Notes: generated from the letters alone by a model not told the origin. DNA of 64,000 nucleotides from Vicinamibacterales bacterium (GCA_965197935.1 CBDAOD010000003.1:919171-983170), one strand, 5' to 3'; positions 534 through 47,662 are shown, counted from the stretch's first letter. A program made the numbers and translations.

Positions 534-3173
534 CTACGAGTGCGACGACAGCAGTCGGATGACCCCAGCCGTCCCGTCGACTTCGACCCGCTGACCGTCG
601 TGCAGCCGGGTCGTCACCCGGTCGATGCCGACGACGCACGGTTTTCCGTACTCGCGGGCGATGACCGCGCCATGCTGCAGAACCCCGCCGACTTCGAGCA
701 CGACTGCTGCGACGCTCGTGAATAACGGGGTCCAACCCGGGTCGGTCGTGTAGGCGACCAACACGTCTCCCTTCCTGACCGGTGTCTCACGCGGGTTGCG
801 GATCACTTTCACCGGTCCGCGCGCGACTCCCGGCGACACGGCCATGCCGACGAGCTCGCCGGGCTTGCCCTCCTGCGGCGGCGGGCGCAGGATCCGGCCG
901 CGCGAGTCGATCACCTGCGGGAACTCCGTCACGTGGGCGGCGAGCCGCTTCGCGAAGCGGGTCCGCTCGGTGCGCCGCGCGCGTAGGTCCGACGCGGGAT
1001 CGTGGACGGCCGCCGCGAGGTCGCCAAGCGTCAGGTCGAAGACATCCTCGACCGCGTCGAGACGCCCCTCGGTCACGAGGCGTCGCCCCTCAATTAGGGC
1101 GCGCTTGCGAATCGCGTATGTGAGCATGACGGCGTGATACTTGGGCGTGTCGCGGGCTCCGCCGAACAGCTCGATGAGCCGGGAGACGCGTCGCAGCAGG
1201 GCTCGCCGCAGCCACCCCGAGCGCCGCCGTAGCTCTTCGGAGGCGCGCCGCCGGTCCTCGACGTTGCGCCGGTGCGCGACCTCCGGGTCGAAACCAGCCT
1301 CGTCGGCGGCCATGTAGGACATCTGCCGCAGCGCGAGCGTGAGGTCGTCGGCGTAGCGCGGGCTCGCAATATCCATTTCGTGCGGACCACGGCAGCCGAA
1401 GCGCCGGAGAAAGGTGTCCCACTCACTCAGGAACTCGGCCGGCATCCCGCGCTGGTCGATCCGCTCGGCCAGTGCCTCGACGTCACGAAAGTCGGAGCGC
1501 TCCAGCCGCCTGGCCAGTCGAAACAGCGCGAGCCCCTGCTCGACGACGAGGTTGCCCGTGAATCCCCGCCTCAGCCTGTCGGCCAGCGAGTTCATCTCCC
1601 GAGTCTTCTTCGGGATCAGAAAGTCGGGCGAGACCAGCCCGGCGAAGAGTGCGGGTAGCGTCACGCCGAACATCTCCCCCCACACCCGCTGCGTGTAGCT
1701 GCGTGCAAAGTCCTCGAGCGGCAGATCGTAGTTCAATCTCTCGGTGAACTCTTCTTCGAAGGCGTGGACGCTGCGCTGATACGCGCGCCGCGCGCGCTCC
1801 GGGGCCAGCAAGACCTCGAGCCCACTCCACAAGAGCCCACGCAGTGTCCAGAGCAGCCTGGGAATGAGCCGGAGCCGCAACCACGGAGGCCGGGTCGGCG
1901 CGCGGTGTTGCTCCGGGTCGATGTTGGCCAGGATCTGGCCCAGCAGGGCGTCCGTCAGGGCGGTGCTCCTCGCCATCGTCCTGGGGCTCATTCCCAGCCA
2001 CAGGAGGTTGGAGAGGTTCACGTAGAGACGGTTGCCAGCCGTGAACACGAGTCCGTCTACGGCCGAGACGTCCTGCATCCCGAGGAGCCCCCTCAGCGCG
2101 CTCGAGTACATGGCGTCGATCCAGGAGAGACCGGGCGAGGAGATCGGCTGGTTGGTGGTCAGGCCCTTCGACAGCGCCGCGTCGGCGTACAGCCGCCGGC
2201 GCTCGCCGGGGTCCGTCACCATCTCCGGCGGGAGTGGTACGTAGGTGGTGATGGGGCGCGCCTGCAGGACGTGGAGCCGCCCGCCCGCGTAGGCCCACTC
2301 GACGTCCATCGGTTCGCCGTAGAGCGTCTCGATACGGCGGAGCACGTCGGCCAGCTCGCGGAGTTGCGCGTGACTCAAGGTCGGATCCGTCGAGCGATCT
2401 TCCGTGCGCTCGACCGTGCCGCCGTCGGGGCCCAGACGGGTCGAGATCTGCTTGGACCCGAGCTTTGTCTGGACGAGCTCGCCGTTGACCTTGTCGATGA
2501 CGTAGTGGTCGGGCGACGCCAGATCCGCGACGACCGACTCGCCGAGCCCCCAGTTCGCGTCGACGACGGCCTCGTCGTAGTCGTTCGTCACCGGGTTCAG
2601 CGAGAACCCCACACCGGCGACGTCGCTATCGAGTTGCTGCTGTACGACCACGGCGATGCGCGGTGACAACACGTCGAAGCCATGCGCCCGCTTGTAGACG
2701 AACACGCGGTGGTCGAGGCTCGAGGCGAAGCAGCGTCTCACCGCGTCGTCCAGATCGGCCGGGCGAACGCCCAGTCGGCTCTCGTAGCCACCGGCGAACG
2801 AGGCGGTGGCCAGGTCTTCCTCCGGTGAGGATGAGCGCACCGCGAAGAGCACCTCGCCGCCCGGCCCCACGAGGTCGTGGCGCAGGTCGGCCAGGGCGCG
2901 TCGCTGAGCCGCCGTCATCGGAAGAGCGGGGCAGAGCGCCTTCAACTCGGCGCACAGGGCAGCCCACTGGTCCGGCGTCGCCTCGGCGAGCGCCTTCCAC
3001 GTCGCGGAGGTCTGAATCTCGTCGAACCAGGGCGCGAAGAATTCCGTCGTGAGCACGACGCCGGGCGGAACGCGCAGGCCCGCCCTGGCGATCCGGATCA
3101 GTGACGCGCCCTTGCCGCCGACCTCCGCCAGAGTCGGCTGCCCGGCGCCGGGGAACGAGACGACCAGGGTCAT
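534..3173 (-). CDS. PEP/pyruvate-binding (ATP-grasp) plus C-terminal His-swivel phosphotransferase, rifampin-phosphotransferase-like architecture
   Basis: N-terminal GGKGASL and AVRSSSPEEDLATASFAG motifs, EWAY/LQARPIT, C-terminal TTDPGWTPLF and GGVLQHGAVIAREYGKP. Start placed at ATG 3173 (MTLVVSF) to avoid overlap with the upstream gene. Confidence 0.85.
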   Translation of the reverse strand: MTLVVSFPGAGQPTLAEVGGKGASLIRIARAGLRVPPGVVLTTEFFAPWFDEIQTSATWKALAEATPDQWAALCAELKALCPALPMTAAQRRALADLRHDLVGPGGEVLFAVRSSSPEEDLATASFAGGYESRLGVRPADLDDAVRRCFASSLDHRVFVYKRAHGFDVLSPRIAVVVQQQLDSDVAGVGFSLNPVTNDYDEAVVDANWGLGESVVADLASPDHYVIDKVNGELVQTKLGSKQISTRLGPDGGTVERTEDRSTDPTLSHAQLRELADVLRRIETLYGEPMDVEWAYAGGRLHVLQARPITTYVPLPPEMVTDPGERRRLYADAALSKGLTTNQPISSPGLSWIDAMYSSALRGLLGMQDVSAVDGLVFTAGNRLYVNLSNLLWLGMSPRTMARSTALTDALLGQILANIDPEQHRAPTRPPWLRLRLIPRLLWTLRGLLWSGLEVLLAPERARRAYQRSVHAFEEEFTERLNYDLPLEDFARSYTQRVWGEMFGVTLPALFAGLVSPDFLIPKKTREMNSLADRLRRGFTGNLVVEQGLALFRLARRLERSDFRDVEALAERIDQRGMPAEFLSEWDTFLRRFGCRGPHEMDIASPRYADDLTLALRQMSYMAADEAGFDPEVAHRRNVEDRRRASEELRRRSGWLRRALLRRVSRLIELFGGARDTPKYHAVMLTYAIRKRALIEGRRLVTEGRLDAVEDVFDLTLGDLAAAVHDPASDLRARRTERTRFAKRLAAHVTEFPQVIDSRGRILRPPPQEGKPGELVGMAVSPGVARGPVKVIRNPRETPVRKGDVLVAYTTDPGWTPLFTSVAAVVLEVGGVLQHGAVIAREYGKPCVVGIDRVTTRLHDGQRVEVDGTAGVIRLLSSHS

Positions 3174-3240
3174 CGTTATCGTTTCGGGTCGGTCCCGGGG
3201 ACGCGGCCTCACGACCGAGGAGGGGCCCGGCAAGCCGGTG

Positions 3241-4065
3241 TCAGCGGTCGCCCACCTCCTCGATGAAGCCTCGAATCGGTTCCCAGTAGCTCTCGTCGTC
3301 GTCGGCGTAGAAGTCGTTGTGATCCGCACCGTATAGGGTGACGAAGCGCTTCTCGGTCCTCAGGCCGTCGAACAGCCGTCGGCCCTGCTCGAACGGGACG
3401 ATCGTATCCGCGTCGCCGTGAACCACCAGCACCGGTCGATCCAGGCTCCGCAGGAACGAGGCCGTGGGAAAGCGGTAGCTGGAGAAGAGACTCAGAATCT
3501 TGAGGACCGGGTCGCGACTCAGGAGCGACCGCGCGCTGGGAAACGATGATTCGAGGATGAGGGCGTCCGGCGTCTCGACCGTGGTCGCGTAGGCGGCGAA
3601 CACGCCCCCGAGCGATCGCCCCCAGTAGACGACCGTGGTCTCGGGCCGGTGCAGCCTCTCGAAGAAGCGCGCGACCAGGGCGTCGGTGTCCCGGTAGAGA
3701 CCCTGCTCGGAGGGAGAGCCGGTGCTCGTGCCGTAGCCGCGATAGTCGAGTGCCAGGACGCTGAGCCCCTGGCGGGAGATCCCGGCGAGGATGTCGACCC
3801 AGAGCGAGAGGTTGCCGCCGTTGCCGTGCCAGAACACGACCTCGGCCCTCGGCTCGGGGTGCGGGAGCCACCACGCCGACACCGTCTCTCCGTCGCTGGT
3901 CTCCAGCGAGATCTCTTCGTACGGGATCCCGAGGTCGGTCGGAGTCGCCTGCACCCCCGGGAGCGGATAGAACGCGACATGGCGCTCGAGCACCGACACG
4001 AGCAGCTTCAGCACGACGATGCCGGCCAGCGTGATGAGGACGTACGGCAGCACGGTTCGCGCCAT
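3241..4065 (-). CDS. Alpha/beta hydrolase (ABHD/BEM46-like) with N-terminal membrane anchor
   Basis: HGNGGN, DYRGYG, nucleophile elbow GRSLGG, HGDADTIVP, GADHND. Confidence 0.9.
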   Translation of the reverse strand: MARTVLPYVLITLAGIVVLKLLVSVLERHVAFYPLPGVQATPTDLGIPYEEISLETSDGETVSAWWLPHPEPRAEVVFWHGNGGNLSLWVDILAGISRQGLSVLALDYRGYGTSTGSPSEQGLYRDTDALVARFFERLHRPETTVVYWGRSLGGVFAAYATTVETPDALILESSFPSARSLLSRDPVLKILSLFSSYRFPTASFLRSLDRPVLVVHGDADTIVPFEQGRRLFDGLRTEKRFVTLYGADHNDFYADDDESYWEPIRGFIEEVGDR

Positions 4066-7460: not shown

Positions 7461-8874
7461 TACTACTTTGTTAGATCCGCAAGTGCACCGACTTTAGCGC
7501 CTCGATGCGCTTCAGGTAGAACGGCCGTGGAGCAAAGAGGTACGCGGTGAAGATTTCCTGCACGATCGCGCGGGCCACTGGAAAGGTGAGCCCGGCGAGG
7601 TGCCGCCGCCGCTCGGCCTGCAGGAAGTTGTACGTCACGGCGGTGAGCACGACGTGATGGTGCCAGCCCGGGAACGTGCGGCCTTCGAAGTGATCCAACC
7701 CGAGGTGGGGCTTCAACTCTTGGTACTGCTGCTCGATGGCCCACCGCTGATGCGCGAGTCGGACGAGCTGCGGCCAGGAGGTGGTGGCCGGCAGGTTGAC
7801 GAAGAAGTATTTGGTCCGCGGCGTCGCGCCCGTGTCGCGTTCGGCCAGCAGCCACACCTCGGGGGCGAGCCGGCGGTCGCGCCAGTCGTGGGCCGGGGTC
7901 ACCCGCAGGGCCACACACTGGACCGTCCAGCGGCGCCCGCCGCGGCGGTTGCGCCAGCTGATGGGCCGCCACCGCGGCTGCGCCTTGGCGGCCTGGGCCA
8001 CCGTGTACGCCCGCCCGCCCGCCGCCAGGTCTGGCCGGGTGCGCGGGCGCCCCAGCCGGCCGCCCCGCCGGTGCCCGAGGCGCGGCCGCCCCAGGAACAC
8101 GGTCTGCGACGAGGAAATCCCCACCGCATAGGGGAGCCGCAACCGATGCCACATGGCCCGAAACAGGCCGGTATCGCCAAACTCCGCATCGGCCAGCACG
8201 CCGGTGCCGGTGAGGCCGCTGGCGCGCACCTGCCGGAGCAGGGTGAGCGCTTGGCGCCACTTCGCCTGCAACCGGACACCCCGGGGAAGCCGCGCCCGAT
8301 CGCGGGCGGCGTCGGTCAGCCACGCCTCGGGCACATAGAGCGCGGCCCCCAGCAAGTAGGCGCGCAGCCCGGTCCACAGCGCCGCGGTGACCGCCACTTG
8401 GCCATTGGCGACTTTCCCCACGGCCCCACAGTACTGGCGGGCCACCCCGACCGAGGACGTCCCTGGCTTGGGGAAACTCGTGCCAGCGAAGATCACCAGC
8501 CCTTCGCGTTCGGGCAGCACCGCCCGCAGGCAGCGCCAGACGCCGTCGGCACTCCACGGCGCATCGGTGATGAAGTGTTGGAACGCTTGATAGCCCCCGG
8601 GATCGGTCCCCCGCGCCAGCATCGCTTCCATCGACTTGCGCGGGCTGTCGCTGAGCAACCCCTGGACGTACCGGCGCAACGCCAGCTCCTGTGCGCGCTG
8701 GCCGAAGCACGCCTTGAAGGCCTCGAGCCATCTCATCAGGCGACGCAACTGCCCCACCGTGCGGCGGTCGTGCACTACCGCGCAGGGTCCCGAATTCGCC
8801 GGAAAAGTACAATGTCCTCAAATTAGATCGCTTGTCGGATCTCGCCCAAATTGTGCGATCTAAACAAAGTAGTA
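7461..8874 (-). mobile_element. IS701-family element, copy 1 (transposase 7471-8775)
   Basis: Terminal IRs TACTACTTTGTTAGATC, CTAG target duplication at 7457-7460 and 8875-8878; 434-aa transposase with SVGVARQY, VLADAEFG, RWAIEQ, GLDHFEGR. Confidence 0.95.
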
Positions 8875-10017: not shown

Positions 10018-11430
10018 TACTACTTTGTTAGATCGCACAATTTGGGCGAGATCCGACAAGTGATCTAATTTGAGGACATTGTACTTTTCCGGCGAATTCG
10101 GTACCCTGCGCGGTAGTGCAGGACCGCCGCACGGTGGGGCAGTTGCGTCGCCTGATGAGATGGCTCGAGGCCTTCAAGGCGTGCTTCGGCCATCGCGCAC
10201 AGGAGCTGGCGTTGCGCCGGTACGTCCAGGGGTTGCTCAGCGACAGCCCGCGCAAGTCGATGGAAGCGATGCTGGCGCGGGGGACCGATCCCGGGGGCTA
10301 TCAAGCGTTCCAACACTTCATCACCGATGCGCCGTGGAGTGCCGACGGCGTCTGGCGCTGCCTGCGGGCGGTGCTGCCCGAACGCGAAGGGCTGGTGATC
10401 TTCGCCGGCACGAGTTTCCCCAAGCCAGGGACGTCCTCGGTCGGGGTGGCCCGCCAGTACTGTGGGGCCGTGGGGAAAGTCGCCAATGGCCAAGTGGCGG
10501 TCACCGCGGCGCTGTGGACCGGGCTGCGCGCCTACTTGCTGGGGGCCGCGCTCTATGTGCCCGAGGCGTGGCTGACCGACGCCGCCCGCGATCGGGCGCG
10601 GCTTCCCCGGGGTGTCCGGTTGCAGGCGAAGTGGCGCCAAGCGCTCACCCTGCTCCGGCAGGTGCGCGCCAGCGGCCTCACCGGCACCGGCGTGCTGGCC
10701 GATGCGGAGTTTGGCGATACCGGCCTGTTTCGGGCCATGTGGCATCGGTTGCGGCTCCCCTATGCGGTGGGGATTTCCTCGTCGCAGACCGTGTTCCTGG
10801 GGCGGCCGCGCCTCGGGCACCGGCGGGGCGGCCGGCTGGGGCGCCCGCGCACCCGGCCAGACCTGGCGGCGGGCGTGCGGGCGTACACGGTGGCCCAGGC
10901 CGCCAAGGCGCAGCCGCGGTGGCGGCCCATCAGCTGGCGCAACCGCCGCGGCGGGCGCCGCTGGACGGTCCAGTGTGTGGCCCTGCGGGTGACCCCGGCC
11001 CACGACTGGCGCGACCGCCGGCTCGCCCCCGAGGTGTGGCTGCTGGCCGAACGCGACACGGGCGCGACGCCGCGGACCAAATACTTCTTCGTCAACCTGC
11101 CGGCCACCACCTCCTGGCCGCAGCTCGTCCGACTCGCGCATCAGCGGTGGGCCATCGAGCAGCAGTACCAAGAGTTGAAGACCCACCTCGGGTTGGATCA
11201 CTTCGAAGGCCGCACGTTCCCGGGCTGGCACCATCACGTCGTGCTCACCGCCGTGACGTACAACTTCCTGCAGGCCGAGCGGCGGCGGCACCTCGCCAGG
11301 CTCACCTTTCCAGTGGCCCGCGCGATCGTGCAGGAAATCTTCACCGCGTACCTCTTTGCTCCACGGCCGTTCTACCTGAAGCGCATCGAGGCGCTAAAGT
11401 CGGTGCAATTGCGGATCTAACAAAGTAGTA
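10018..11430 (+). mobile_element. IS701-family element, copy 2 (transposase 10116-11420)
   Basis: 1413 bp, same IRs as copy 1, CTAG at 10014-10017 and 11431-11434; inverted relative to copy 1. Confidence 0.95.
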
Positions 11431-35729: not shown

Positions 35730-36146
35730 ATGTTCATCACTCGATCGGTGTGGGTGGGAGTCGTCGCACCCCTGGCGGCGGTCTTCACGTTCGTCGCAGT
35801 GGGCCGTAGTGAAGTGGACACGGCGAACGCGTCGCCGCAGGGGACCCCGGGGCACACCGTTGACGCCGGCGACGCGGGTGTCGCCGTGGAGACTCGAACC
35901 GTTGCGCTCCACATCGAAGGCATGACGTGAGGGGGGTGCCCCCTGGCCGTGCGCCAGGCTCTCCTGAATGTCGACGGCGTCGTCTCAGCAGAGGTATCGT
36001 TCGACGACAAGCGCGCCGAGGTCCGTTGCGACGCAGCGGTCGATGCTGCACTGCTGGTGCAAGCCGTCGAGGACGCCGGCTTTGAGGCTCGGGTCATCGA
36101 CACCGCCGACGACACGGCCAGCGGGGACCGCCGATCGTCCCGTTGA
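35730..36146 (+). CDS. Predicted selenoprotein: exported MerP-like HMA protein, motif GMT-U-GG-C (U67)
   Basis: AGGAG RBS and ATG 35730; hydrophobic N-terminus; LHIEGMT-TGA(35928-35930)-GGCPLAVRQALLNVDGVVSAEVSFDDKRAEV...LVQAVEDAGFEA, in frame to TGA 36146. Confidence 0.88.
35928..35964 (+). promoter_or_regulatory. SECIS-like hairpin
   Basis: Upper stem CCTGGC/GCCAGG (35942-35958) with loop CGTGC 17 nt after UGA; lower stem GGGGGG/CTCTCC. Confidence 0.65.
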
Positions 36147-36592
36147 GAGCGCCGGACGCCCGGGCGCAACAGACGCACAGGCACACCGCAAACGGTCGTC
36201 AGGAAGGGACGCTCTTGAACGACCCCTCCCCATGGGATCCGCGCGCTCTGAACGATCGTCTGCCGGGTGTCGCAAGCGCCGTCTCCGCCCTCCTCGCGGC
36301 CAGTTGCTGTCTCCTGCCGATCGCCTTGATCACCTTGGGGATCGCCGGGGCGGGCATCATGATGACGATGATGCGCTACGAGTGGCTGACACTTCCCCTC
36401 GGCGTGGGTGGCCTCGTGGGCGCCGCCGCCCTGTACGTCAGCAACCGTCGGCGGTGTGAAACGACCGGCTGCCGTTTTGTCGGACAGCGGTTCAACCAGG
36501 CGATGCTGGGGCTCGCTGCGCTGGTCGTGGCAGTGGCGCTATTGCTGAAGGTGTTCCCCGCGTGGACCGCGACGCTGCTACAGCAGCTCTGA
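36143..36592 (+). CDS. MerT-like heavy-metal transport membrane protein (start may be TTG 36215)
   Basis: Three TM helices, AASCCLLP in TM1, loop RRRCETTGC; same Cys layout as MerT. Confidence 0.8.
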   Translation: MRAPDARAQQTHRHTANGRQEGTLLNDPSPWDPRALNDRLPGVASAVSALLAASCCLLPIALITLGIAGAGIMMTMMRYEWLTLPLGVGGLVGAAALYVSNRRRCETTGCRFVGQRFNQAMLGLAALVVAVALLLKVFPAWTATLLQQL

Positions 36593-36604: not shown

Positions 36605-37453
36605 GTGCTGAGGCCTGACGAAGTCGCATGGATGGCTCTGGCCGCCGTCCTTTCGATGCCCCAGTCTTCGCCGGCCCAGATCGTGGCACCAGCCGGCCGA
36701 ACGCTGTTCAACCGATCGGTGATGCTTCGCAGTTTCGTGCGCGTCGATCACTTCATCGACACCGGACCGGGCGAAGAGACTCGTCGCCTCGTGAACCCGT
36801 ATGCGGTCGTGTGGGGCGTGTATCCCAACGTCAGCGTGACCCTGGTCACGCCCGTGGTCAGCCTGCGACGTCAGACCCCAGGCGGATCCGAGCGACCATC
36901 CCCGCTGACGAGCTTCGGCGATAGCAGCCTCCTGGCTCGCGTGGACGTGTGGCGCCGGCTCGTCCCGGGCGGGTACACGCGGCTCTCGCCGGAAGTCGGC
37001 GTCAAGATGCCCACCGGAGGAACGTTCGGCAGCGGATCGACCGACGCGATCGCCGGTTTGGTCCTGTCTCACGTGCGCGACCCGCATTGGTTGGTCGGTG
37101 ACGTTCAGTTCACCTACACCACGACCGGGGACGGTGACCTTCGCGCCGGCAATCGCTGGCGGTATGATTTCGCATATCTTCACCGTTTGCTCCCGCGAGA
37201 CGGATTGGGCATTCCGACCGTCTTGGCCGTCCTGGAGGTGAACGGTGAACACGGCCGGCACGCCCGCGCTGGCGATGTGCCGCTACCGAATAGCGGAGGC
37301 GATCTGGTGTTCCTCTCACCGGGTGTCGAGCTCATCACGTCGCGGCGGCTCGTCATCGAGTGCTCGGTGCCGATACCGATTCACCGCGATCTCAACGGAT
37401 CGCAGCTGGAACCGGCATGGAGCTTCATCGGGGGCGCGCGATGGCTGTTCTGA
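36605..37453 (+). CDS. Outer-membrane beta-barrel, transporter/MetA-pathway-like
   Basis: Signal peptide, GDSSLLARV, GVKMPTG..GSGSTD, NSGGDLVFLSPG, terminal RWLF. Confidence 0.7.
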   Translation: MLRPDEVAWMALAAVLSMPQSSPAQIVAPAGRTLFNRSVMLRSFVRVDHFIDTGPGEETRRLVNPYAVVWGVYPNVSVTLVTPVVSLRRQTPGGSERPSPLTSFGDSSLLARVDVWRRLVPGGYTRLSPEVGVKMPTGGTFGSGSTDAIAGLVLSHVRDPHWLVGDVQFTYTTTGDGDLRAGNRWRYDFAYLHRLLPRDGLGIPTVLAVLEVNGEHGRHARAGDVPLPNSGGDLVFLSPGVELITSRRLVIECSVPIPIHRDLNGSQLEPAWSFIGGARWLF

Positions 37454-38442
37454 GGTTCCAGGTGGTCGTTGTCTTGCTGGGAGGCTTCGTTGCATCTCTG
37501 ATGCTGGCCGACCACGGGCGGGCTGCCGGACCACCGTACGCCTCGGACGCGACGGACGGAGCCGCGTTGCCCCGGGCCGACCCGCACTACCGGACGGTGG
37601 GACGGTGGGGCGTGGCTGGCGAGCGCCCTGGTCAACTGAACGGTGTGCAGGGGATCGCGGTTGATTCGGCGGGCGAGGTGTACGTCGCAGACGCCGAGAA
37701 CTGCCGCATCCAGGTCTTCAGCCGCGAAGGGGAGTTTCGTCGATCGTGGGGCGAATGCGGGGAGGGCGAGGGCGAATTCATCAAACCAACCGACGTGGCG
37801 GTGGGGGTCGATGACGAGATCTTCGTCGTGGACTTCATGCTCGACCGGCTCCAGGTCTTCGACGGACAGGGAGCCTACCTGCGGGGGTGGGGTACCTCGG
37901 GCACCGGCCCGGGGGAGTTTTCGTCGCCGGTTGGAGTCGCAGCCGGTCGGGACAGGTCCGTCTATGTCGTCGAGTTCTACGGCCATACCATACAGAAGTT
38001 CTCCAGCGACGGGCTCTGGATGGCCACGTGGGGCGGCGAGGGACACGGTGAGGGACAGCTCTACTATCCGGCGAAGATTGGCCTGGGCCCGGACGGTGGT
38101 GTCTATGTGGCCGACGCACATAATGCCCGCATTCAACGGTTCGATCGCGAGGGCCGGTTCGTCGGTACCTGGGGTCAGGCTGGTACGTGGTACGGTCATC
38201 TCAACGATCCGGTAGACGTCGTCATCGCGCGCGACGGTTCGATGCATGTGGCCGACAGTGCGAATTTTCGTGTGCAGTGGCTGGCCGCCGATGGCAGCTA
38301 CATCGCGGAGTGGAAGTTGCCCGGAGAGACGGCCGGCCGGTTTCAGTCGCCGCAGGCGCTGGTGCAGGATGCGCAGGGCTATCTCTACGTGAGCGATACG
38401 GCTGGCAACCAGATCTACAAGCTGGAGGCGGTGCGACCATGA
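37441..38442 (+). CDS. Exported NHL-repeat six-bladed beta-propeller
   Basis: Repeated P..IAVD..G.VYVAD..N.RIQ.F units with WG..G.GPGEF linkers; start and stop overlap both neighbours. Confidence 0.92.
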   Translation: MAVLRFQVVVVLLGGFVASLMLADHGRAAGPPYASDATDGAALPRADPHYRTVGRWGVAGERPGQLNGVQGIAVDSAGEVYVADAENCRIQVFSREGEFRRSWGECGEGEGEFIKPTDVAVGVDDEIFVVDFMLDRLQVFDGQGAYLRGWGTSGTGPGEFSSPVGVAAGRDRSVYVVEFYGHTIQKFSSDGLWMATWGGEGHGEGQLYYPAKIGLGPDGGVYVADAHNARIQRFDREGRFVGTWGQAGTWYGHLNDPVDVVIARDGSMHVADSANFRVQWLAADGSYIAEWKLPGETAGRFQSPQALVQDAQGYLYVSDTAGNQIYKLEAVRP

Positions 38443-40205
38443 AGAGAGTGATCAGACATCTCGCGCGGGCGGGGCTCGCCAGCGTCACGACCGCGGTACT
38501 GCTACTCACGGCGGCTCCGGCAGTCGCCCAGGTGGATCAGGCATGGGTGCGCGTCGATGGTCTGACTTGACCGCTCTGAGCCTATGGGGTCGAGAAGGCC
38601 CTCCGACGCCTGGATGGCGTCGATCGTGTGACGGTGGATCTGAGAGCCGGTACGGCTGTCGTGCAGTCGGCGGAAGGGGAGGGGTTCGATCCGACCTCGA
38701 TCGCCACGGCGGTTCGAGACGCGGGATTCAGCGCCGAGCGGATCGATGTGACAGCCGTCGGCACCGTGGTGAATGAGGGTGGCGCCGCTCGACTGGAGAT
38801 GACCGCTCCATTGACGGCTCTCCGCCTGCGGGACGGAACAAAGACCGCACAGCTGAAGGAACGCCGCGGTCTTCTCCAGGGGCCGCTACGTCTCACGGGC
38901 CGGCTCGAGCCGGCCCGTGAGGGGCAGCCTGCGCTCCTGGCCCTCGAGACCTGGGAGCCGGTTGATGACGGGAGTGCGAGAAGGGATCGATCAGATCCGA
39001 GGTGGCAGGCGGAGGCTTCGCCACCCGCGATCGGCGAGCTGGAGATGCTCGCGTCGCCGGCTGGACCGAAGAGCGGGCAGCCGCAGCTCCACCGACCCCA
39101 GGAGGGCCGCGTCATCCTGAGCTGGCTCGAGCCCGGCGCGTCGGCCAAGACCCGGCTGCGTTTCGCGGAGCGTGACGGGAGCGGCTGGTCGGCTCCGCGG
39201 ACGGTAGTGGATGGCGAAGAGTTCTTCGTGAACTGGGCGGACGTCCCATCCGTGGTTCGGCTGGCCGACGGCCGCCTCGCGGCGCACTGGCTGAACAAGA
39301 GCGGACCGTCCACCTATGCCTACGATGTCCGACTGAGGATATCGGATGACGGCGGCGGGGTGTGGTCGTCCGCGCTCACGCCCCACCGTGACGGAACGCT
39401 GACCGAGCACGGCTTCGCGTCGCTGTTCGACTGGGCTCCAGGCGGCCTGGGCCTCGTGTGGCTCGACGGCCGGGAGATGAGCGCCGAGAGCGGGCCCGGG
39501 CGGGACGACAGAGGCTCGATAACCTTGCGGGCGACGACGCTATCGCCCGATCTCGAATTCGCCCCTGAGGTTCTCCTCGATGGCCGCGTCTGTGAGTGTT
39601 GTCCGACGGCGGCGGTGCAGACCGACCAGGGAGTGGTGGTCGCCTATCGTGATCGCAGCGACGAGGAAGTACGCGACATCGCTACGGTTCGGTATCACAA
39701 CGGGAGCTGGAGCGACCCCGTCATCGTTCATCGGGATGGCTGGCAGATTCGCGGATGTCCGGTGAACGGTCCGGCGCTGGCGAGCGACGGTCAGATCGTC
39801 GCTCTGGCCTGGTTCACGGCCGAGGCCGGCGACGGTCGGGTCCAGGTGGCGTTCTCCCAGGACGCAGGCGCCTCGTTCGGTCGGCCGATCCGCATCTCCA
39901 GCGACGTGGCGCTCGGGCGTGTCGACCTCACCTTGCTCCCGGACCGGTCGGCGCTCGTGACCTGGATCGGCTCCCGAGCCGGAACGTCGGAGTTCCTGCT
40001 CCGACGGGTGGCACGTTCGGGCGAGATGGGGGCTCCCCGGTCGATCGTGGCCATCGACTCGAGCCGCGCGAGCGGCGTGCCGCGCCTGGTGCGGTCGGGT
40101 GACGAGCTCGTATTCGCGTGGACCGAGACCGGGGCGGTCTCGCGCGTGCGCACGGCGGTGGCAGCGCTCGTCGAGACGAAAGTGTCCCCGACCCGGTCGC
40201 ACTAG
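38439..40205 (+). CDS. Predicted di-selenoprotein: signal peptide, HMA domain (GLT-U-PL-U; U44, U47) and BNR/sialidase-like propeller with CECC and GCPVNGP
   Basis: ATGA overlap with the NHL stop; VRVDGLT-TGA(38568)-PL-TGA(38577)-AYGVEKALRRLDGVDRVTVDL is in the same frame as track ORF 38628-40205; 588 codons. Confidence 0.85.
38568..38622 (+). promoter_or_regulatory. Two tandem SECIS-like hairpins after the UxxU codons
   Basis: GGGGTC-GAGAA-GGCCCT (38586-38602) and CGACGCC-TGGAT-GGCGTCG (38604-38622). Confidence 0.5.
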
Positions 40206-46249: not shown

Positions 46250-47662
46250 TACTACTTTGTTAGATCCGCAAGTGCACCGACTTTAGCGCCTCGATGCGCT
46301 TCAGGTAGAACGGCCGTGGAGCAAAGAGGTCCGCGGTGAAGATTTCCTGCACGATCGCGCGGGCCACTGGAAAGGTGAGCCCGGCGAGGTGCCGCCGCCG
46401 CTCGGCCTGCAGGAAGTTGTACGTCACGGCGGTGAGCACGACGTGATGGTGCCAGCCCGGGAACGTGCGGCCTTCGAAGTGATCCAACCCGAGGTGGGGC
46501 TTCAACTCTTGGTACTGCTGCTCGATGGCCCACCGCTGATGCGCGAGTCGGACGAGCTGCGGCCAGGAGGTGGTGGCCGGCAGGTTGACGAAGAAGTATT
46601 TGGTCCGCGGCGTCGCGCCCGTGTCGCGTTCGGCCAGCAGCCACACCTCGGGGGCGAGCCGGCGGTCGCGCCAGTCGTGGGCCGGGGTCACCCGCAGGGC
46701 CACACACTGGACCGTCCAGCGGCGCCCGCCGCGGCGGTTGCGCCAGCTGATGGGCCGCCACCGCGGCTGCGCCTTGGCGGCCTGGGCCACCGTGTACGCC
46801 CGCACGCCCGCCGCCAGGTCTGGCCGGGTGCGCGGGCGCCCCAGCCGGCCGCCCCGCCGGTGCCCGAGGCGCGGCCGCCCCAGGAACACGGTCTGCGACG
46901 AGGAAATCCCCACCGCATAGGGGAGCCGCAACCGATGCCACATGGCCCGAAACAGGCCGGTATCGCCAAACTCCGCATCGGCCAGCACGCCGGTGCCGGT
47001 GAGGCCGCTGGCGCGCACCTGCCGGAGCAGGGTGAGCGCTTGGCGCCACTTCGCCTGCAACCGGACACCCCGGGGAAGCCGCGCCCGATCGCGGGCGGCG
47101 TCGGTCAGCCACGCCTCGGGCACATAGAGCGCGGCCCCCAGCAAGTAGGCGCGCAGCCCGGTCCACAGCGCCGCGGTGACCGCCACTTGGCCATTGGCGA
47201 CTTTCCCCACGGCCCCACAGTACTGGCGGGCCACCCCGACCGAGGACGTCCCTGGCTTGGGGAAACTCGTGCCAGCGAAGATCACCAGCCCTTCGCGTTC
47301 GGGCAGCACCGCCCGCAGGCAGCGCCAGACGCCGTCGGCACTCCACGGCGCATCGGTGATGAAGTGTTGGAACGCTTGATAGCCCCCGGGCTCGGTCCCC
47401 CGCGCCAGCATCGCTTCCATCGACTTGCGCGGGCTGTCGCTGAGCAACCCCTGGACGTACCGGCGCAACGCCAGCTCCTGTGCGCGCTGGCCGAAGCACG
47501 CCTTGAAGGCCTCGAGCCATCTCATCAGGCGACGCAACTGACCCACCGTGCGGCGGTCGTGCACTACCGCGCAGGGTACCGAATTCGCCGGAAAAGTACA
47601 ATGTCCTCAAATTAGATCACTTGTCGGATCTCGCCCAAATTGTGCGATCTAACAAAGTAGTA
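46250..47662 (-). mobile_element. IS701-family element, copy 3 (transposase 46260-47564)
   Basis: 1413 bp, same IRs, CTAG at 46246-46249 and 47663-47666. Confidence 0.95.

Follow-up and report, generated by a model that had tools for sequence, protein, structure and literature searches.

A UxxU HMA-OB gene with two probable selenocysteine codons and conserved tandem hairpins, fused to a Cys/His-rich propeller in a Vicinamibacterales bacterium

Selenoproteins of the HMA type have been described before: MerP and 'putative mercuric reductase' entries with a UxxU motif (U stands for selenocysteine, Sec) are known through the GOS (Global Ocean Sampling) analysis (PMC2398784), the NCBIfam model NF041115 'UxxU_metal_bind' is listed in a 2026 review (PMC13188914), and MerT-family CU selenoproteins have been reported as well (bioRxiv 10.1101/2022.07.06.499078). 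Here we analyse a gene at positions 38439-40205 (+ strand) of a stretch of 64,000 nucleotides (nt) from a Vicinamibacterales bacterium (GCA_965197935.1, CBDAOD010000003.1:919171-983170); this whole stretch is called the window below. The gene carries two in-frame UGA codons in the metal loop of an HMA domain, which is followed by an OB-like domain and, in the same frame, by a Cys/His-rich propeller. An earlier note on the window, made from its sequence, had called two Sec in one metal loop rare; this has to be qualified, since UxxU proteins of the HMA type have a precedent (NCBIfam NF041115; PMC13188914). Two Sec in an HMA loop are not new as a kind. What appears to be new is a distinct, widespread and uncatalogued di-Sec clade of HMA-OB proteins and, within the window, a unique fusion. 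On balance, we favour the reading that the gene encodes a three-module periplasmic protein with a UxxU soft-metal site, which belongs to a mer-linked trio of genes and bears a propeller fusion seen in this genome alone.

Three described families come close to the N-terminal part of the protein. NF041115 shares with it the HMA-type fold, the replacement of both metal-loop Cys by Sec and the presumed soft-metal ligand function. On the other hand, NF041115 is a single-domain model of 74 residues, to which the window protein scores 35.5 bits and typical members with a UPLU motif 33-46 bits, the cutoff being 95; the HMA-OB clade goes beyond it in having a signal peptide, an OB-like domain, a PL spacer, an AYGxEKAL helix and a fixed gene trio. 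Likewise, MerP (TIGR02052) is a secreted protein whose HMA domain has two ligands in the loop where beta1 meets alpha1, and its gene has merT and merA as neighbours; but it has Cys ligands and a single domain (34.1 bits for the window protein, cutoff 92.55). The 'MerT/CopZ fusion-like heavy metal transport selenoprotein' (NF045683) and the MerT CU selenoproteins resemble it in that Sec is used in mercury-type transport and that an HMA domain is fused to another module; they differ in consisting of a membrane MerT plus HMA with a single Sec (34.5 bits for the window protein, cutoff 375). No NCBIfam model covers the two-domain HMA-OB family, and a literature search, which was incomplete in coverage, found no description of the family, the trio, the tandem hairpins or the fusion.

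The features of the gene are as follows.

38439..40205, + strand: whole gene, 588 codons; signal peptide, HMA (UxxU), OB-like domain, linker and Cys/His-rich propeller
38424..38428, + strand: GGAGG, Shine-Dalgarno-like, 10 nt before the ATG at 38439, as read from the sequence
38439..38528, + strand: Sec-type signal peptide, residues 1-30, with an AVA cleavage site before Q (MKRVIRHLARAGLASVTTAVLLLTAAPAVA precedes the Q); equivalents occur in all homologues
38547..38738, + strand: HMA (ferredoxin-like) domain with the metal loop G-L-T-U-P-L-U (Pfam match to residues 37-97; model)
38568..38570, + strand: UGA 1, codon 44, putative Sec44, aligned with the first Cys of CPFC in homologues
38577..38579, + strand: UGA 2, codon 47, putative Sec47, aligned with the second Cys of CPFC
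38745..38960, + strand: OB-fold-like beta-barrel, residues ~103-174 (family alignment; in the model beta1-3, a helix and beta4-5)
38970..39014, + strand: charged junction or linker EPVDDGSARRDRSDPRWQAE, residues ~178-192, homologous to neither parent family; predicted local distance difference test (pLDDT) 55-64
39015..40202, + strand: Cys/His-rich sialidase-fold beta-propeller, with CECC at 39591-39602 and GCPVNGP from 39753

From the ATG at 38439 to the TAG at 40203-40205 the frame has exactly two internal stops, both of them TGA. In translation, MKRVIRHLARAGLASVTTAVLLLTAAPAVA is followed by QVDQAWVRVDGLT, the first stop, Pro-Leu, the second stop and AYGVEKALRRLDGV. The ATG overlaps the TGA stop of the preceding NHL gene as ATGA. 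The public gene call (P0001, 514 amino acids (aa), 38661-40205) starts at an internal GTG located 3' of both TGAs, so that its product is without a signal peptide and has only half of the HMA domain. That translation starts only at 38628, which the earlier note had named as a finding that would speak against it, is excluded by more than 30 homologues in which signal peptide, beta1 and U-x-x-U loop are kept in frame, and both the GGAGG and the overlap with the stop of the upstream gene point to 38439 as well.

For domain searches, Cys was put in place of both stops. Residues 37-97 then match Pfam HMA (PF00403) with E 9e-11 and 42.4 bits (cutoff 24.8), and both TGAs of the segment GLT-U-PL-U fall on the ligand positions of the HMA loop, that is, on the beta1-alpha1 junction. 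A model covering residues 48-209 has the order helix-strand-strand-helix-strand, with pLDDT about 90; beta1 and the metal loop lie outside the modelled segment. Translation and domain matches thus confirm that an HMA loop with two Sec codons shares one frame with a Cys-rich, sialidase-like propeller, as the earlier note had proposed. Residues ~100-175 are no linker but, by family alignment, model and Foldseek, a conserved second domain. Residues ~103-174 align across the whole family and are modelled as beta1-beta2-beta3-helix-beta4-beta5 with pLDDT about 90. Its Foldseek neighbours are weak (E about 5e-3) and all of the OB-fold, namely SSB, RPA, periplasmic YgiW and the C-domain of NlpE, which weakly suggests, at the level of the model, that the domain is OB-like.

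Proteins of the HMA-OB family are secreted, have ~170-180 aa and consist of a signal peptide, an HMA domain with DG(M/L)xCPFCAYG(V/L)EKKLKK and the second domain of ~70 aa. The window protein has the same layout (signal peptide, HMA with an xPxx-AYGxEK helix, barrel of ~70 aa), and it has a Val instead of an Ala before EKAL. As judged from the alignment, the family exists in CPFC and in UPLU forms, and the window protein is a divergent member of the UxxU clade. A HPSHADxPPG motif in the OB domain of Sec-type members could be an additional His-based site. There is also a short group (~105 aa) of single-domain CPFC/CPYC HMA proteins with 'AYGxEKAL' and without the OB domain, found on metagenome contigs (L030, L041, L040, L047); two of these genes (L030 and L041) also have homologues of the outer membrane (OM) barrel and NHL genes in their vicinity.

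Are the two TGAs a peculiarity of the window? An exhaustive phmmer run that used the 162 residues following the second TGA returned 199 relatives, down to E 1e-19, which cover query residues 1-130. Among the 150 cluster representatives listed, 87 have CPFC, and about 36 are short calls that start directly after the motif. Short gene calls beginning after the motif are the usual artefact of selenoprotein genes. The truncated calls (about a quarter of the HMA-OB clusters) are probably selenocysteine forms. In the DNA of two of them, L004 and L005, which had been found by protein similarity alone, we find an in-frame signal peptide and a double TGA upstream of the call; with U written for TGA, the motifs read VLGIT-U-PG-U-AYGVEKAL (L004) and RIDGMV-U-PL-U-AYGAEKAL (L005).

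A degenerate DNA pattern of 30 nt for U-P-x-U-A-[YF]-G-x-E-K was then run over 185,579 species genomes (596 Gb). It gave 22 matches, 19 of which are a UxxU HMA-OB gene in a matching neighbourhood. The carriers of these 19 genes are mostly Acidobacteriota (Terriglobia, Thermoanaerobaculia, Acidiferrales), and one is a member of the Gemmatimonadota. For a census of JGI metagenomes, TGA, TGC or TGT was permitted at both positions, which added 14 UxxU genes and eight CxxC genes of the more distant short group. Genuine mixed forms (UxxC or CxxU) were not found in this census. In summary, TGA-xx-TGA recurs at no fewer than 33 distinct loci besides that of the window, 19 of them in species-level genomes and 14 on metagenome contigs, and all have a signal peptide upstream.

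Since the double TGA recurs in L004 and L005, which were retrieved by protein similarity alone, and in 19 of the 22 pattern matches, it is not a matter of chance. In more than 30 loci the coding sequence is conserved on either side of the UGAs: upstream the signal peptide, beta1 and the loop, downstream the helix and all that follows. In the homologue alignment both UGAs fall on the two Cys of CPFC. We consider selenocysteine at both positions very likely; its insertion as such is what we infer from these sequences. Alternatively, the TGAs could be true stops, so that the gene is either a pseudogene or starts at an internal GTG (38628 or 38661). This would agree with the public call, which starts at 38661, and with the fact that no Sec machinery is seen in the window. 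Such a product, however, would have no signal peptide and only half of an HMA fold. More than 30 diverged loci conserve both TGAs, the 43 codons upstream and the hairpins described below, about 36 of the 150 family representatives show the same truncated-call artefact, and the Shine-Dalgarno sequence and translational coupling are found at 38439. We regard true stops as extremely improbable.

Shortly after the UGAs there are two adjacent hairpins.

38586..38602, + strand: hairpin A, GGGGUC-GAGAA-GGCCCU, the loop of which begins 21 nt after UGA 1
38604..38622, + strand: hairpin B, CGACGCC-UGGAU-GGCGUCG, the loop of which begins 31 nt after UGA 2

They are present in 33 of 33 distinct UxxU sequences, in a region of 37 nt that begins 15 nt after UGA 1; in degenerate form, A reads GGGGCC-GARAA-GGCCCU and B reads CGRCGCC-UGGAN-GGCGUCG. 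Standard pairs fill 99.1% of the pair cells, compared with 29-49% when the partners are slid by 1-3 columns. The four-fold-degenerate codons of the stems are frozen (GGG, CGC, CTG and GTC are each found in 34 of 34 sequences, GGC in 33 of 34 and GCC in 32 of 34), whereas outside the stems the wobble entropy of comparably conserved Gly, Ala and Val codons is 1.3-1.9 bits. The mean fold of the region is -23.0 kcal/mol for 26 distinct UxxU sequences and -8.8 kcal/mol for ten CxxC homologues, which cannot adopt the two hairpins (+5.4 kcal/mol). The fold of the single window sequence is not significant alone (z = -1.26), and the case is made by the comparative data. Rfam gave no match at the gathering threshold for the window, nor any at E up to 10 around the UGAs.

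A bacterial selenocysteine insertion sequence (SECIS) as defined in bSECISearch is a stem-loop shortly 3' of the UGA, with a G in the apical loop and about 16-37 nt between the UGA and the loop. Both loops have a G in the first two positions, and the distances of 21 and 31 nt lie within this range. The hairpins thus fit a recoding signal that is compatible with the usual description of bacterial SECIS elements. There could be one hairpin for each UGA (A for UGA 1 and B for UGA 2), or the pair could act as one composite element. With two UGAs and two hairpins within 55 nt, the region would offer a compact natural system for the handling by SelB of UGAs that are three codons apart.

Next, we turn to the propeller. 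For residues 193-588 we find 7273 stand-alone, secreted homologues of ~410 aa with 50-59% identity and with their own signal peptide or lipobox; the propeller corresponds to their mature part. FVNWAD, AHWL, PHRDG, TEHGF and GCPVNGP are invariant in this family and CECC is nearly so; all of them are present in the window protein, where CECC corresponds to C385, C387 and C388 (39591-39602) and the Cys of GCPVNGP is C440 (39756). The motifs picked out in the earlier note (FVNWAD, EHGF, CECC, GCPVNGP) therefore lie at invariant or near-invariant columns. BNR_2 (PF13088) remains below threshold (30.7 bits, cutoff 31.4), and sialidases in the PDB are matched at E 0.004 only. On the other hand, the AF2 model is a confident sialidase-type beta-propeller with pLDDT above 90, for which Foldseek returns sialidases, lectins and lyases as generic matches only (TM 0.4-0.5, at most 16% identity). 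No F/YRIP motif is visible in the sequence; there are two Asp-box-like motifs, SDDGGGVW and SQDAGASF. Compared with the stand-alone 'sialidase family proteins' (weak PF13088 matches such as P0002 and P0025), the propeller shares 50-59% identity and all His, Asp and Cys motifs, but the stand-alone proteins have a signal peptide or lipobox of their own, lack an HMA-OB module and vary in their surroundings. Nothing is common to the five distinct neighbourhoods of stand-alone propellers, and in one of them DsbD and a redoxin are adjacent. The partnership with thiol-redox and TonB systems that the earlier note named for this family is accordingly seen in only one of the five.

The two parts are joined cleanly. 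The HMA-OB family normally ends within ~10 residues of window residue 178, and the homology to the propellers starts at residue 193, about 8 residues after the lipobox Cys of the stand-alone P0002. Between them, a joint of ~15 residues with low confidence (EPVDDGSARRDRSDPRWQAE) and a flat codon-position GC pattern replaces the signal peptide of the propeller; the fused propeller has no N-terminal signal peptide or lipobox of its own, and the HMA-OB module stands in its place. Since the stand-alone homologues have their own signal peptides, both parents of the fusion are periplasmic. As far as can be read from the sequence, the fusion has a clean joint at domain boundaries and a sensible topology. 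At 38900-39050, where the earlier note advised looking for an indel, the frame is unbroken, the codon-position GC pattern keeps to this one frame throughout, and there is no alternative frame with a start and a signal peptide.

In a collection of 5.8 billion protein sequences, none but the window protein spans both the HMA-OB module and the propeller. A word-indexed protein search with residues 48-188 had no match, and among the UxxU and CxxC cassette loci there is no propeller homologue. The earlier note had reckoned with the case that HMA and BNR are always separate genes and that an indel explains the join. The first half of this is what we see everywhere else, and the two are never neighbours; the second half does not hold. 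With neither an indel nor a break in the frame to account for the join, the fusion counts as real in this sequence, yet it is a singleton.

A singleton may of course not be a functional product: it could stem from an error of assembly or consensus, or from a neutral in-frame deletion of very recent date that happens to read through, and its parts would then be functionally independent of each other. It is a singleton among the proteins searched, no cassette locus has a propeller homologue nearby, the junction of ~15 codons has a flat codon-position GC and low predicted order, and the GC content at third codon positions (GC3) differs between the halves (0.71 vs 0.83). On the other hand, the join lies exactly at the domain boundaries and removes only the signal peptide and lipobox of the propeller; the frame is kept for 396 further codons, with all residues that are invariant in the family intact; the source contig has 3.36 Mb; and a separate propeller gene would have no alternative frame with a start and a signal peptide. 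Furthermore, some UxxU HMA-OB genes are ~70-80 codons longer than the others (L005 at 3094-3798, L006, L038 and L048), and the C-terminal extension of L005 has a weak DUF5818 match. The module thus has C-terminal additions of at least two kinds and tolerates them. A fusion that is not functional is possible, though we would not expect it. The GC3 of the cassette is 0.71-0.82, that of most neighbours 0.82-0.92. A recent horizontal insertion of the cassette beside a resident propeller gene is not supported by this difference; two unrelated upstream genes have an equally low GC3.

Five co-oriented genes follow each other closely here, and the UxxU gene comes last. The other members of the cluster are the following.

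35730..36146, + strand: MerP-like secreted HMA protein, first gene of the cluster (translation; HMA E 9e-14 with Cys substituted)
35942..35958, + strand: candidate SECIS hairpin CCUGGC-CGUGC-GCCAGG, 11 nt after the UGA of the MerP-like gene (-9.6 kcal/mol; single sequence)
36215..36592, + strand: MerT-like inner-membrane protein with a CC motif (weak MerT matches, E 1e-3 and 1e-4, below cutoff)
36605..37453, + strand: OM beta-barrel-like protein of the Phenol_MetA_deg type, first of the trio (weak Pfam match)
37417..38442, + strand: secreted NHL-repeat six-bladed propeller, second of the trio (NHL E 3e-33)

The MerP-like gene has one in-frame TGA (35928-35930) in the motif HIEGMT-U-GG-C (UxxC), and its best NCBIfam match is NF041115 UxxU_metal_bind with 77.4 bits (cutoff 95); from its sequence, the protein is a candidate for the second selenoprotein of the cluster. 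The start of the MerT-like gene is uncertain, the reading frame being open from 36143. The same applies to the NHL gene, which may start at 37360 (GTG), 37417 or 37441 (both ATG). From 37360 it would overlap the OM barrel gene by up to 94 nt (37360-37453), and from either ATG it would have a signal-anchor-like N-terminus and a shorter overlap.

The trio is a fixed arrangement. Orthologues of the OM barrel (50-62% identity) lie directly upstream of the NHL gene in UxxU loci, and in nearly all loci with enough flank an orthologue of the NHL gene (50-63% identity) immediately precedes the UxxU gene. In several related loci mer-type genes are found beside it, further upstream: L008 has a bona fide MerA (TIGR02053, 582 bits, cutoff 454) and a CsoR-like gene, MerR-like genes are present in L013 and L020, MerTP-like fusions in L005, L006 and L027, and CsoR-like regulators in L019 and L025. 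The Cys form of the HMA-OB protein (~170 aa, e.g. P0167 in L055) has the two domains, the signal peptide and the OM barrel, NHL-like and mer partners in common with the window protein, and differs from it in having Cys instead of Sec, no downstream hairpins, another gene order and no propeller fusion. In L055, an operon of csoR-like, merT, HMA and merA genes is divergent from an operon of HMA-OB, OM barrel, NHL-like and merR genes. From the position of the trio beside mer-type genes in related loci we conclude that it is an accessory of mer-type systems. As a separate observation, L008 (5112-6882) and L055 (2140-4858) have a CsoR-family regulator in one operon with merT and merA, beside the cassette; control of mer genes of the CsoR type instead of the MerR type would be unusual.

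The metal could nevertheless be Cu(I) or Ag(I), and the trio a periplasmic copper-handling system, which would leave the selenoprotein and the cassette unchanged. In L005, L008, L019, L025, L027 and L055 the cassette is flanked by regulators of the CsoR type, a class that usually senses copper; the top NCBIfam matches of the HMA domain are CopZ models, and merA is absent from the window. However, no CopZ score reaches its cutoff, the adjacent reductases in L008 and L055 are bona fide MerA proteins above curated cutoffs, the CsoR-like gene there shares its operon with merT and merA, and the cassette is accompanied by MerT-like or MerTP-like transporters, not by CopA or CusCBA. We consider copper or silver rather unlikely. 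Even less can be said for a redox role, in which the UxxU loop would be a redox centre (a selenol/diselenide couple) with the Cys-rich propeller as its partner or substrate. Most prokaryotic UxxC and UxxU selenoproteins are indeed redox proteins (PMC13188914, PMC2398784), one stand-alone propeller homologue adjoins DsbD and a redoxin, and the propeller has four conserved Cys. But the fold is that of HMA, not of thioredoxin, and the motif occupies the position of the canonical metal loop; the genes nearby encode metal transporters, regulators and MerA, and a thiol-redox context is seen in one of five propeller neighbourhoods. We therefore regard a redox centre as improbable.

Several observations weigh against the mer-linked, di-Sec protein with a meaningful fusion that we favour. 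No tRNA-Sec, selA, selB or selD is found within the 64-kb window (nor was tRNA-Sec found in 30 related loci), and the window has no MerA, MerR or CsoR. Its MerT-like and MerP-like proteins are below every curated cutoff, and the CsoR-like regulators and the best CopZ matches are also compatible with copper. All other Sec-type members keep HPSHADxPPG in the OB domain, where the window protein reads LEPAREGQPA (38889-38918, residues ~151-160), so that the window copy may work in another way. The hairpins show minimal covariation, with compensatory changes at one pair; such changes are nearly absent because the region is nearly invariant, and the argument for the RNA is hence one of synonymous-site conservation and of the Cys-form control, not of covariation. 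The propeller family has neither a conserved neighbourhood nor a characterised relative. Finally, no other protein among the 5.8 billion sequences combines the two parts, so that the fusion is known from one assembly only.

A mechanism that is consistent with the mer-linked reading can be outlined. The two UGAs would be decoded as Sec with the help of the two tandem hairpins that start 15 nt after UGA 1, and Sec44 and Sec47 of the HMA domain would hold a soft metal ion between them. The trio might move Hg(II) (Cu(I) and Ag(I) are less likely) over the outer membrane and through the periplasm: the ion, most probably Hg(II), would enter via the OM barrel and be captured in the periplasm by the selenolates of the HMA loop, a bis-selenolate site of very high affinity for capture and hand-off. 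It could then be passed to the MerP-like and MerT-like route, or be sequestered. Compared with thiolates, selenolates bind Hg(II) more tightly, and at neutral pH they are deprotonated, which gives a rationale for the Sec forms. The fusion would tether the conserved Cys/His cluster of the propeller to the selenolate site.

Elsewhere in the window there are three near-identical copies of an insertion sequence of ~1.43 kb (7471-8817, - strand; 10074-11420, + strand; 46260-47606, - strand), the product of which is a transposase of 449 aa (DDE_5/DDE_Tnp_1). Two of the copies are in opposite orientation, ~1.3 kb apart.

Taken alone, the fusion is a singleton of uncertain significance, while the di-Sec clade with its hairpins and its mer-linked cassette is a solid and apparently undescribed finding. 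That all three parts hold jointly, that is, that the hairpins are an undescribed recoding signal, the trio is an arm of mer systems and the fusion assigns the propeller family to soft-metal chemistry, is a tentative proposal on which we would not insist. If it is true, the trio would be a periplasmic arm, so far unrecognised and in many cases dependent on selenium, of the mer systems of Acidobacteriota and relatives. The fusion would then be a 'Rosetta stone' for more than 7000 uncharacterised Cys/His-rich propellers; if real, it is the sole functional clue so far for this very large family. Since its genes are mis-called, annotation and surveys of mercury cycling overlook the whole di-Sec clade, which belongs to Acidobacteriota of soil and groundwater. 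The clade also allows a test of whether bis-selenolate sites have an advantage over the bis-thiolate sites of the MerP type in the capture of Hg(II).

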